From a virus: a stretch of 49,385 bases of DNA. The DNA is taken from the IMG/VR virus record IMGVR_UViG_3300025858_000002; one strand, given 5' to 3'. Below the pieces are notes generated by a model. It worked only from the letters and a program-made list of their open reading frames with translations. It was not told the origin of the DNA and searched no databases. Of the stretch, positions 2,015 to 15,145 are shown piece after piece (the first letter of the stretch is position 1; every line of letters begins with the position of its first letter). A program made the translations under genes and the position numbers.

Positions 2015-2072
2015 GGGGGCTGGGTTCATCATTCTTTTCCTTCCTTTTCCTCTAAAGAGGAAGCCCCCACCT
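2015..2072 (+). ncRNA. tRNA-like minihelix RNA (element Z): GGGGGCU/AGCCCCC terminal stem followed by ACCU
   Basis: A 7-bp perfect helix joins 2015-2021 and 2062-2068. Hairpin UCCUC-UAAA-GAGGA (2048-2061) abuts its 3' strand. The interior has a CU-rich tract. The element ends 14 nt before ATG 2086, just ahead of SD AAGGA. Confidence 0.45.
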
Positions 2073-4998: not shown

Positions 4999-5079
4999 TG
5001 GTGGCGGTGTGATTCAGAGGAGAGAGAAAGTAGGAAGGGAGTCCGAATCATTTATAATTGTAGTCAAACAATCACCGCC
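4999..5079 (-). ncRNA. tRNA-like minihelix RNA (element A): GGCGGUG/CACCGCC stem followed by ACCA
   Basis: On the minus strand a 7-bp perfect helix joins 5079-5073 and 5009-5003, followed by A-CCA (5002-4999). A 6-bp helix UGAUUC/GAAUCA (5050-5045 with 5015-5010) abuts it and closes a 29-nt CU-rich loop. There is no anticodon arm. Confidence 0.5.
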
Positions 5080-9860: not shown

Positions 9861-10208
9861 TTATTTTTTTAGCCTGCTTTTTAGTAAGGCTTCCTTGGCT
9901 TTATATAGTCCTAAATCACCCTTAAAGTAGATATCACCACCATCTGAGAACCCTTGGTAACGCGAATCTATTGCAAACAAGACAGCATCTATTGCATAGA
10001 GCCAACAGTCCTCCGATAGGATCTTTAACTCTTTAGCTTTTCTTAAACGACCTGCATCTGTATAAGGGGGGATAAGGTCACCATCACGTCTTGTTCTATA
10101 CTTTTCAAAGTACTTAACAAGAGATAGATAATCGCCTGGTGTTATTTCACTTGGATCCATTGGAACATCAATAGATTCTAGTAGAGCTAGAACATCTTTC
10201 TTTTTCAT
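9861..10208 (-). CDS. Hypothetical protein
   Basis: ORF track. SD AAAGGA upstream. Confidence 0.5.
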   Translation of the reverse strand: MKKKDVLALLESIDVPMDPSEITPGDYLSLVKYFEKYRTRRDGDLIPPYTDAGRLRKAKELKILSEDCWLYAIDAVLFAIDSRYQGFSDGGDIYFKGDLGLYKAKEALLKSRLKK

Positions 10209-10220
10209 ATTTAATCCTTT

Positions 10221-10410
10221 TGGTGAGGCTGACCAGCAACTTGGATTTCAATGGTCATTTAACGGTAGCGACACCGGGGGTATGAACCCCGTCTAGCCAG
10301 CGGACCGGAAGCCCAGTCCACACCTTTTCCGCACCTCAAAACTGGCGGGGACCGATAACCTTGCGGGGTCACTAAGACACTCCTAGGATGGTCAATCTAA
10401 ATTCGTCCCC
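10221..10410 (-). ncRNA. GC-rich structured RNA (elements B2/B3)
   Basis: A sampled 60-nt line is about 65% GC, against about 32% in flanking genes. No ORF. GGGGAC/GUCCCC helix followed by G-CCA. T-arm-like hairpin CGGGG-UUCAUAC-CCCCG. The 3' end reads GCCUC-ACCA just before SD AAAGGA. Confidence 0.4.
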
Positions 10411-10415
10411 ATAAC

Positions 10416-10461
10416 TGGTGGGCAGGATACAGACGATTTCTACCTGTATAGCAACTGCCCA
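10416..10461 (-). ncRNA. tRNA-Tyr acceptor-mimic minihelix (element B1)
   Basis: Minus strand reads GGGCAG-UUGCU-AUACAG-GUAGAAAUCGU-CUGUAU-C-CUGCCC-ACCA. Plus-strand 12-mer ctggtgggcagg (10415-10426) is identical to the tRNA-Tyr 3' end (14077-14088). Confidence 0.5.
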
Positions 10462-10466
10462 TAAAC

Positions 10467-10670
10467 TTATCTTGTTTTATAAGATTGTAATACTTCAATA
10501 ACACGCCAACTTGGAAATTTCTCAACTTTAACATCTACTTGGTCTTGTGTTTTAATTTCAACACGTACACCTTTCCAAACATTATCACTGATTTGTCCAA
10601 GGGTATAAACCTTGTATTGTTTACTTTCCATCACTGGTGTTAATTTAGATAAATCATATTTCTGTATCAT
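10467..10670 (-). CDS. Hypothetical protein
   Basis: ORF track. Confidence 0.5.
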   Translation of the reverse strand: MIQKYDLSKLTPVMESKQYKVYTLGQISDNVWKGVRVEIKTQDQVDVKVEKFPSWRVIEVLQSYKTR

Positions 10671-12746: not shown

Positions 12747-12923
12747 TTATTTACTATTTTCTGCAATTAAATCTAATAAATTAGTCATTGCTGCCTGTTC
12801 GCGCCATTCTTGTTTATATTGAACACAATCTTTTATATCAGATATTCCAACAATTTCACTGCTATATCTGGTAACTTGTGCCTGTCTGGTCCAGACAAAT
12901 TGTGATACTTTTATTTCTTTCTT
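12747..12923 (-). pseudogene. Orphan C-terminal fragment paralogous to the 11658..12083 product
   Basis: Own translation QFVWTRQAQVTRYSSEIVGISDIKDCVQYKQEWREQAA aligns with RFVWTRAARVVRMSAETLFITEVKDCVQFKQDWQKQAS. The frame opens only after a TGA inside the methyltransferase gene end and has no start codon. Confidence 0.5.
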
Positions 12924-13411
12924 TCAACAACACATATTGTGTCATTATGAGCTCCCCCGTGAGGAACAAGCAAAACTTCAACTATTTCAAATCCATATTT
13001 ATTACCAACACCACCAGACGACCATCCAAACGATATTACATAACCCCCTGTTTTCACTATTCTTTGCAATTCTGGTCTAGACTTAGTCATAGGGTTAGAT
13101 TGTGTGTCTTGTGTGGTGCAACTACCTCTCACTTTTCTATAAACTTCCGATAGCTGTCTTAATGAGTATGGAGGGTCAAATAAAACGCAATCAACTGATT
13201 CATTATCAAATCTTTTAAGAAACTCTAAGTAATCTAGATGGTTATCAGCAGAAGTATTCGGGTCAATGTCGTTAGTTACATCTGCAATTTTACAATCTTT
13301 TGCAAACGGGTCTATTATAAAACCTATTTTGTAATTATTTATTAGGTCTTTTATGGGTTTAATTGTAAAAGTTAGAGAATTTGGCATCGCCCATATTCTA
13401 TTTATTTTCAT
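12911..13411 (-). CDS. Small DNA methyltransferase (N6-A or N4-C type)
   Basis: IIDPFA (motif I-like) and LFDPPYS (motif IV). Confidence 0.7.
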   Translation of the reverse strand: MKINRIWAMPNSLTFTIKPIKDLINNYKIGFIIDPFAKDCKIADVTNDIDPNTSADNHLDYLEFLKRFDNESVDCVLFDPPYSLRQLSEVYRKVRGSCTTQDTQSNPMTKSRPELQRIVKTGGYVISFGWSSGGVGNKYGFEIVEVLLVPHGGAHNDTICVVERKK

Positions 13412-14057: not shown

Positions 14058-14077
14058 ATCTCTATCCTTTTATAATC

Positions 14078-14162
14078 TGGTGGGCAGGGCTGGATTTGAA
14101 CCAACGAACTCTGAGAGAACAGATTTACAGTCTGCCTGCTTTAACCTCTTGCATACCTACCC
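14078..14162 (-). tRNA. tRNA-Tyr (anticodon GUA), class II, CCA encoded
   Basis: Hand-folded cloverleaf. Acceptor GGGUAGG/CCUGCCC. D stem UGC/GCA with a GG loop. Anticodon arm GCAGA-CUGUAAA-UCUGU. 13-nt variable arm. T arm GUUGG-UUCAAAU-CCAGC. Ends A-CCA. Confidence 0.9.
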
Positions 14163-14168
14163 ATAATT

Positions 14169-14280
14169 TGGTGGGGATTTCGTAAGGCGTATATCTCTCT
14201 TTCAAGATACTTTATATTGCTTACCCTTTATTTCAAGGCACGATGTCATTATTCATCACTCACGCCACCCTATTATCCCC
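14169..14280 (-). ncRNA. tRNA-like RNA (element C), 6 nt upstream of tRNA-Tyr
   Basis: Terminal helix GGGGAU/AUCCCC joins 14280-14275 and 14178-14173, then A-CCA (14172-14169). Internal hairpins CCUU-GAAAUA-AAGG and AUCU-UGAAAGAG-AGAU. No cloverleaf. Confidence 0.4.
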
Positions 14281-15018: not shown

Positions 15019-15145
15019 TGGTGGGGCGGAAGCCGCGATTCTTAGATAGCGATTGCACTTCTGCTATGACTAGAACGTTTGTTTTATTATGCAAAACTAG
15101 CGAGTCGCCTTATTCCTGTCAATATCCTTGCGGGATATAAGCCCC
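15019..15145 (-). ncRNA. tRNA-like RNA (element D) with internal copy of the downstream SD
   Basis: Terminal helix GGGGC/GCCCC joins 15145-15141 and 15027-15023, then A-CCA. Hairpin AUAUCC-CGCAA-GGAUAU. The 8-mer atatcctt occurs at both 15122-15129 (internal) and 15007-15014 (SD of the next ORF). Confidence 0.4.

Follow-up and report, generated by a model that had tools for sequence, protein, structure and literature searches.

A phage-encoded 45-nt minihelix with a tRNA-Tyr acceptor end as a candidate cutting signal for host tRNA-maturation enzymes

Introduction

The tRNA cluster of bacteriophage T4 encodes stable RNAs that are not tRNAs, namely species 1 and 2 of ~120–140 nt. For the T-even phages, a catalogue of tRNA-like molecules has been cited, and certain longer T4 RNAs have been described as tRNA precursors that are cut by RNase P (PMC11143913). 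Minihelix substrates of RNase P, composed of an acceptor stem, a T stem-loop, and a 3′ RCCA, were described by McClain, Guerrier-Takada, and Altman (reviewed in PMC11143913). A hairpin that joins an acceptor stem to a T stem and T loop is cleaved efficiently and at the correct site by bacterial RNase P, whether or not the protein subunit is present (PMC11143913), and such cleavage is governed by the 3′ RCCA and the −1 base (PMC12710915). According to PMC2190699, RNase P alone is able to resolve polycistronic tRNA transcripts, and RNase E cuts 1–3 nt after the encoded CCA. Division of messages by tRNA-like elements is known from organelles, where t-elements and tRNA punctuation have been described.

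Bacterial Tyr identity is given by the anticodon together with A73 and G1-C72 (PMC9976931). The tRNA-Tyr of the host is degraded by Retron-Eco7, a defence that phage tRNA-Tyr counters (PMC11555353); Retron-Eco7 PtuAB is the one characterised tRNA-Tyr-specific defence nuclease and cuts the variable loop (PMC12673091). A bacterial Schlafen cuts anticodon arms (PMC13056530). In the literature searched, we found no description of free-standing RCCA minihelices as phage intergenic elements, and none for bacteriophages of message division by tRNA look-alikes. Here, we describe a natural minihelix, B1, in the genome of an uncultured phage and compare it with these systems.

Results

Position and fold of B1

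The analyzed stretch (the window) comprises 49,385 nt of IMG/VR virus record IMGVR_UViG_3300025858_000002 and makes up nearly all of a 49.4-kb contig of an uncultured phage. Its plus strand carries terminase, portal, and major head genes, and a long minus-strand block holds early/middle genes, including those for a DnaB-like helicase, ERF, YqaJ, a D12 methylase, and an amidoligase cassette. The phage is distant from those in culture: its terminase is at most ~29% identical to that of any cultured phage, and the 1.5-kb stretch around B1 had no DNA match in cultured phages.

B1 (minus strand, 10460–10416) consists of a 6-bp G-rich acceptor-like stem with G-C pairs at five of the six positions, a bulged C, and a 7-bp helix stacked on that stem, and it ends in a 3′ ACCA. 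It begins 6 nt downstream of the stop codon (10469–10467) that closes a 67-aa ORF. The parts of B1 and its immediate flanks are as follows:

10461, minus strand: U at −1, the last base of the 6-nt leader GUUUAU after the stop of the 67-aa ORF
10455–10460, minus strand: 5′ strand of the acceptor-like stem, GGGCAG, pairing with CUGCCC at 10425–10420 (fold)
10450–10454, minus strand: 5-nt linker in place of the D arm, anticodon arm, and variable arm (fold)
10427–10449, minus strand: inner 7-bp hairpin in the place of the T arm, 10449–10443 pairing with 10433–10427, loop 10442–10434 (fold)
10426, minus strand: bulged C, equal to C66 of tRNA-Tyr, which opens the shared 12-mer (fold and repeat search)
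10420–10425, minus strand: 3′ strand of the acceptor-like stem, CUGCCC (fold and repeat search)
10416–10419, minus strand: discriminator A (10419) and encoded CCA (10418–10416) (sequence)
10411–10415, minus strand: 5-nt spacer GUUAU between B1 and the next element, B2 (sequence)

An earlier note, made from the letters of the window, had described this element as a 46-nt minihelix. The RNA proper is 45 nt, and position 10461 is the U at −1. The GGGCAG/CUGCCC stem, the second hairpin, and the ACCA of that note all stood, but the two helices do not abut directly, as the bulged C10426 lies between them. The inner hairpin of 6 bp and an 11-nt loop that the note had drawn is the same helix as ours, which has 7 bp and a 9-nt loop when the closing G·U is counted. 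The absence of D and anticodon arms was borne out, since ARAGORN and Rfam found no tRNA at 10416–10461, even at E up to 10.

The minimum free energy of B1 was −15.5 kcal/mol (z = −1.9), and 9 of 200 shuffled sequences folded equally well, so that the folding energy by itself is only mildly unusual. The chance of a matching 5′ strand at the distance observed in B1 was ~0.002, as estimated from composition. The case for B1 is made by the repeat described below, the matching 5′ strand, and the family context, and not by folding energy. The predicted 9-nt loop is not a canonical T loop. In an alternative register, G10443 is paired with C10435, leaving a 7-nt loop; this register is not the minimum-energy structure and requires a 2-nt bulge. 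Within 10434–10442, this alternative loop has the same base as the T loop of tRNA-Tyr (14094–14100, both minus strand) at five of seven positions. The mismatches fall at positions 55 and 56, which are D-loop contacts in tRNA, and B1 has no D loop.

Several other identities were considered for B1 and rejected. A canonical tRNA (RF00005) was dismissed because there is no cloverleaf, ARAGORN and Rfam finding only the tRNA-Tyr at 14078–14162. A tmRNA does not fit either, with none found by ARAGORN in the window and a G-C at position 3-70 instead of G3·U70. An intrinsic terminator was rejected because the scan returned no terminator-like site; the stem is followed by ACCAGUUAU. Likewise, a promoter-driven gene was rejected for want of a strong promoter-like site, and a split tRNA or minihelix intron because B1 is bordered by a stop codon on one side and by another element on the other, and not by the halves of a tRNA. 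A 45-aa ORF (10397–10534) that crosses B1 was regarded as spurious; it begins within the 67-aa ORF in a different frame.

B1 as the smallest member of a family of RCCA-ended elements

We observed that the window contains at least seven elements of the same design, of which B1 is the minimal version. The design combines a U at −1, a G-rich 5′ strand, and an RCCA end, and the elements lie in intergenic gaps in the orientation of the genes. The siblings of B1 are as follows:

4999–5079, minus strand: A, 81 nt, 7-bp stem and stacked 9-bp helix, ACCA, 16 nt before an ATG (fold z = −6.7)
10343–10410, minus strand: B2, 68 nt, GGGGAC/GUCCCC stem, GCCA (fold)
10221–10337, minus strand: B3, 117 nt, 5-bp terminal stem, several hairpins, ACCA 12 nt before the ATG at 10208
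14169–14280, minus strand: C, 112 nt, GGGGAU/AUCCCC, ACCA, 6 nt upstream of tRNA-Tyr (fold z = −3.9)
15019–15145, minus strand: D, 127 nt, GGGGC/GCCCC, ACCA, 17 nt before an ATG (fold)
2015–2072, plus strand: Z, 7-bp stem and stacked 5-bp hairpin, ACCU, in the orientation of its plus-strand gene (fold)

In every member, the first base is G and the discriminator (position 73) is a purine, and all except Z (ACCU) end in CCA. The U at −1 is present in every member except A, mostly within (U)UUAU. Tandem members stand 5–6 nt apart, as do element C and tRNA-Tyr, and the last CCA of each cluster is 12–20 nt ahead of the start codon and a few bases ahead of an AAGGA-type ribosome-binding site. Stems of at least 5 bp that start with G and are followed by NCCA occurred six times in four minus-strand gaps, one of them being tRNA-Tyr. 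In 1000 dinucleotide-preserving shuffles of the same gaps, 0.29 ± 0.55 such stems were found, and none of the 1000 reached six. With the terminal stem enforced in the fold, a second helix stacked on the 3′ strand of the acceptor (gap of 0–1 nt) in A, B1, B3, D, and Z, like the T stem of tRNA. The total stacks measured 9–16 bp across the family, with 13 bp in B1 and 12 bp in tRNA. Relative to B1, the siblings carry extra hairpins of 22–75 nt on the 5′ side.

The gap that holds B1, B2, and B3 is GC-rich (51% GC versus ~34% overall), B2 and B3 being GC-rich themselves. B3 also contains a 9-bp hairpin and a GGGG-UUCAUAC-CCCC hairpin, which is T-arm-like but stands apart from the terminal stem.

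The 12-mer shared with tRNA-Tyr

The 12-mer CCTGCCCACCAG (minus-strand reading) was present exactly twice in the window, at 10426–10415 and 14088–14077, confirming the identity of 10415–10426 with 14077–14088 that the earlier note had reported. The second copy is the final 11 nt of tRNA-Tyr with one trailer base, and the copy in B1 comprises the bulged C, the 3′ strand, the discriminator, the CCA, and a single base of the trailer. The number of extra copies predicted from base composition or by a first-order Markov model was 0.0005–0.0012, and no other 12-mer with at least nine G/C is repeated in the window. The partner of B1 in this repeat is as follows:

14078–14162, minus strand: tRNA-Tyr(GUA), CCA encoded, from which the 12-mer came or with which it is shared (ARAGORN, Rfam)

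This is the sole tRNA in the window by ARAGORN and Rfam. The repeat is in direct orientation, with B1 3.65 kb downstream of tRNA-Tyr, and extends to 17 nt when one gap is allowed.

A direct repeat of a tRNA 3′ end at such a distance could be an integration or recombination scar left by a mobile segment, like attL/attR, and both the 12-mer (17 nt with the gap) and its orientation agree with this origin. However, a scar would leave the matching 5′ strand, the U at −1, and the stacked second helix unexplained, and Pfam detected no integrase in the ORFs scanned between the two copies. We regard a scar as highly improbable. Duplication of a tRNA-gene att site was also rejected as an identity for B1, which has the direct 12-nt repeat but its own paired 5′ strand, with no integrase by Pfam.

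The interior of B1 showed no significant similarity to tRNA-Tyr (p ~0.25–0.35 against shuffles); therefore, B1 is not a simple deletion derivative of this tRNA. We also rejected the identity of B1 as the acceptor plus anticodon arm of tRNA-Tyr. GUA is found in the loop, which looks slightly like an anticodon loop, but the interior alignment was no better than those of shuffles (p 0.25–0.35).

These comparisons bear on whether B1 is a non-functional relic, that is, a copy of the tRNA-Tyr gene, or of the ends of that gene, which has decayed and was kept by chance. The 12-mer, together with a similar trailer and leader, is common to B1 and tRNA-Tyr, and no homologue of B1 was found elsewhere, as such a relic would have it. 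However, the 3′ end is identical at 12 of 12 positions and the interior retains no residual similarity, an unevenness that argues against neutral decay. Furthermore, both helices of B1 are intact, and the pair at position 4, which is U4·G69 in the phage tRNA-Tyr, is C4-G69 in B1, a strengthening change. The design of B1 also matches that of six siblings, and the genome is densely coded. A relic is an unlikely explanation.

Once the family design GGG...CCC-ACCA is taken as given, the additional identity of B1 with tRNA-Tyr consists of positions 4–6, the unpaired C66, and the trailer G. Its chance was estimated at ~0.02, or ~0.2 with the paired positions alone. A specific link between B1 and tRNA-Tyr is likely but not overwhelmingly so on this count, and the simplest explanation for the Tyr-type tip would be that the tRNA-Tyr gene of the phage itself gave rise to it, through descent or gene conversion.

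Specificity of the acceptor end for tRNA-Tyr

The acceptor was searched for in bacteria, with one genome per species, the query being a GUA anticodon loop with GGG(C/U)AGG on one side and, on the other, the complement of that strand followed by A. GGG(U/C)AG...CUGCCC-A was the tRNA-Tyr acceptor in at least 120 bacterial species (at least 120 loci). Among the matches listed, 78 of 121 had U4 and 43 of 121 had C4, the GGGCAG/CUGCCC-A of B1 being equal to the C4 variant; many phyla are represented among them, and the groups include Clostridia, Selenomonadaceae, Verrucomicrobiota, Bacteroidota, Patescibacteria, and Acidobacteriota. In five Clostridia genomes, the six-bp acceptor plus A at tRNA spacing was found once, and this was tRNA-Tyr. 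The earlier claim that B1 copies the acceptor identity region of tRNA-Tyr, including the discriminator, was thereby upheld as specific. No tRNA match to the acceptor stems of siblings A, B2, B3, C, D, and Z was found in the same five genomes. By this comparison, B1 is the only family member bearing a genuine tRNA acceptor, which is of the Tyr type. G1-C72, A73, and CCA, which include the acceptor-end identity elements for Tyr, are common to most siblings, and B1 is therefore not singled out by them.

About half of the bacterial tRNA-Tyr genes listed encode CCA, and their commonest −1 base is U. The phage tRNA-Tyr was closest to genes of gut and rumen Clostridia (83–84% identity among the matches listed). 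As a clue to the host, this likeness, like the strong Shine-Dalgarno sites, is a weak pointer. When 20 kb of the window were searched against 400 Clostridia genomes, the matches listed comprised tRNA-Tyr-like matches and a small number of ORFs with weak similarity (67% identity at best), and included none at 10416–10461. The 67% match joins window positions 12918–13406, the 166-aa ORF of the phage, to a stretch of one Clostridia genome (L141, G087:C221:1579–2070), which may represent a related prophage and point, if weakly, to the host.

With such a tip, B1 could be a Tyr-specific decoy, a role that the earlier note had raised. The released 45-nt RNA would then titrate a reader of the tRNA-Tyr acceptor end (TyrRS, a CCA-modifying toxin, or a tRNA-Tyr-directed defence nuclease) alongside the phage tRNA-Tyr. 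In the family, B1 alone has a real tRNA acceptor, one that is unique to tRNA-Tyr in the five Clostridia genomes. It is identical to tRNA-Tyr at the acceptor end only and has an unrelated interior, a pattern suggesting constraint on the tip. Moreover, tRNA-Tyr is the phage's only tRNA, and phage tRNA-Tyr genes are known as Retron-Eco7 counter-defence (PMC11555353). However, G1-C72, A73, and CCA are not particular to B1, as stated above, and the extra identity given the family design could arise with an estimated chance of ~0.02–0.2. The variable loop that Retron-Eco7 PtuAB cuts is absent in B1 (PMC12673091), and no dedicated promoter was found. In addition, no RNA-repair or tRNA enzyme (RNA ligase, RtcB, CCA-adding enzyme, or synthetase) was detected in the window by Pfam. 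We consider the decoy improbable; it is kept alive by the Tyr-only match, and no finding favours it over descent of the tip from a tRNA gene. There is an equally slender chance that B1, once excised by RNase P, accumulates as a 45-nt mimic of the near-universal tRNA-Tyr tip of bacteria, sequesters a host factor that reads this tip, and, with the single tRNA gene, makes up a two-part answer to tRNA-Tyr-targeting immunity.

Related phage loci

Homologues of the helicase were found at 57–61% identity in about a dozen metagenomic contigs, and a helicase search of 5.8 billion clusters returned nothing between 61% and 100% identity. A pattern scan of viral_contigs yielded no homologue of B1, a scan of metagenome_contigs with the 5′ end of the neighbouring element gave no match, and blastn of the window's elements against 15 related loci detected no sequence homologue. 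B1 is a sequence singleton. The small ORFs that flank it were not detectably homologous to ORFs of the relatives, and Rfam, at gathering and permissive thresholds, reported only tRNAs in the window and eight related loci.

The relatives have another structured non-coding RNA at the corresponding place, upstream of the helicase region; it is conserved among them, is ~230–580 nt long, and has no Rfam match:

L001:9130–9712, L005:9347–9715, L007:9192–9444, L008:1128–1362, and L010:7031–7433, related loci: the conserved RNA

This RNA has a T-arm-like core, GGCGGUUCRANUCACGC, and a hairpin just ahead of the next ribosome-binding site; nothing in the window corresponds to it. The relatives also carry RNAs of the B1-family design that are not homologous to those of the window and that lie ahead of ribosome-binding sites:

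L009:592–716, related locus: 8-bp stem, GCCA, preceded by GUUAU
L009:733–879 and the 92%-identical L005:16569–16713, related loci: 6-bp stem, ACCA or UCCA, then an A-rich stretch and a ribosome-binding site
L001:16742–16811, related locus: 70-nt element with a GCCA end, upstream of tRNA-Ala

The RNAs of L009 and L005 measure 125–147 nt, have G-rich terminal stems, and stand directly ahead of their ribosome-binding sites; between the two 92%-identical copies, a U-A pair of the terminal stem is changed to U·G. The L001 element lies within a 740-nt gene-free stretch (L001:16690–17429) that contains tRNA-Ala and several GC-rich structured segments, of which the 70-nt element is one and another follows the same UUUAU-G junction. 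We conclude that the design recurs across the phage lineage while the sequences turn over.

Two relatives carry RNA-joining enzymes. In L015 (3886–5031), an RtcB ligase gene is immediately downstream of the helicase, and in L010 (9858–10499) an RNA ligase gene is beside tRNA-Leu and tRNA-Trp. The presence of RtcB and RNA ligase in these relatives speaks for a decoy. However, a search for minihelix copies of the tRNAs that the relatives themselves encode (Ala, Ile, Leu, Trp) found none, which speaks against it.

The recurrence of the design also raises the alternative that B1 is a stable small RNA with its own function unrelated to Tyr, processing being only its route of biogenesis, as with the stable RNAs of the T4 tRNA cluster. 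Three tandem elements at the spacing of a tRNA operon exceed what punctuation needs, and RCCA-ended RNAs of 70–147 nt recur in the relatives. However, we found neither a target or partner nor a loop motif that is conserved, and at 45 nt little of B1 lies outside its helices. We hold an RNA of this kind to be distinctly unlikely.

Proposed cutting of the operon transcript

We propose, with a rough probability of 0.5, that B1 is a mimic of the top half of a tRNA that would be cut from an operon transcript by RNase P and 3′ trimming, with a tip derived from tRNA-Tyr. For the family as a whole, the most likely role would be that of cutting signals for host tRNA-trimming enzymes. B1 would be transcribed within the early/middle operon, and host RNase P would cut between U10461 and G10460 and also at the 5′ G of B2 and B3. 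Trimming would then remove the 5-nt spacers up to the CCA, in the way that polycistronic tRNA precursors are matured. Thereby, the message for the 67-aa ORF would be split from that for a 115-aa ORF and the helicase, the latter keeping a leader of ~12 nt, and a stable 45-nt RNA would be set free. In this scheme, we infer the co-transcription, the RNase P cleavage, the 3′ trimming, and any effect on the fate of the mRNAs.

As judged from its sequence, and its loop apart, B1 has all of the features of an RNase P hairpin substrate. It matches substrates of the minihelix type in its coaxial 6 + 7 bp, which are close to the 7 + 5 bp in the top half of a tRNA, its ACCA, and the presence of G10460 and U10461. 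As in t-elements, a tRNA-like fold lies between cistrons on the coding strand, and only 12 nt separate the end of the array from the next ATG. Promoter-like sites near B1 were limited to two matches at 9 of 12 positions inside the upstream ORF, neither of them strong, and the scan found no terminator-like site flanking B1. The lack of a strong promoter-like and of a terminator-like site is consistent with co-transcription.

Nevertheless, the weak folding energy (z = −1.9), the predicted loop, which is not a canonical T loop, and the status of B1 as a sequence singleton count against its cutting by the tRNA-maturation enzymes. Two points count against pure punctuation, in that three tandem elements are present where one would suffice, and that punctuation by itself leaves the tRNA-Tyr acceptor, found in B1 only, unexplained. 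Compared with a decoy, a processing signal, which the earlier note had named as the other possibility, is the better match to the design, position, and spacing of the family.

Discussion

B1 resembles the model hairpins of RNase P in having a stack of ~12–13 bp, a G+1 paired with C72, a purine discriminator, a CCA, and a U at −1. Unlike those hairpins, B1 is natural and encoded in a phage operon and has a 5-nt linker on the 5′ side, a bulged C, and a predicted 9-nt loop that is not a canonical T loop. Similarly, B1 is like the t-elements and tRNA punctuation of plant mitochondria (PMC1920247), where tRNA-like structures lie between coding regions, in that it would set mRNA ends via RNase P and 3′ processing. 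In contrast to t-elements, B1 occurs in a bacteriophage, its CCA is encoded, much less of the cloverleaf is left in it, and it is one of a set of dispersed elements that end just before Shine-Dalgarno sites. The tandem arrangement of units 5–6 nt apart, each with an encoded CCA, recalls polycistronic tRNA operons (PMC2190699). However, the units here are not tRNAs, save for tRNA-Tyr, and the array runs straight into a protein-coding gene.

With regard to phage RNAs, B1 shares with T4 species 1 and 2 its encoding by a phage, its position next to or in line with tRNA genes, a terminal helix, and, as predicted for B1, processing of the tRNA type. It differs in its length of 45 nt and in having a tip common to a specific tRNA, and it is likened to the T4 RNAs by description. 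As for counter-defence against Retron-Eco7, tRNA-Tyr is the only tRNA of this phage, and its acceptor end is common to B1. However, that counter-defence needs a whole uncleavable tRNA, and B1 is without a variable loop.

If B1 and its siblings are indeed cut by RNase P as proposed, this phage and its relatives would use cut-down tRNA look-alikes so that the tRNA-maturation enzymes of the host divide their long messages. B1 is a natural counterpart of the synthetic hairpins that defined RNase P recognition. As the sole member with a real tRNA tip, B1 is the best object with which to separate a need for any tRNA-like end from a role of the Tyr end itself. If the Tyr end matters, B1 would represent a new kind of small-RNA counter-defence against tRNA-targeting immunity.
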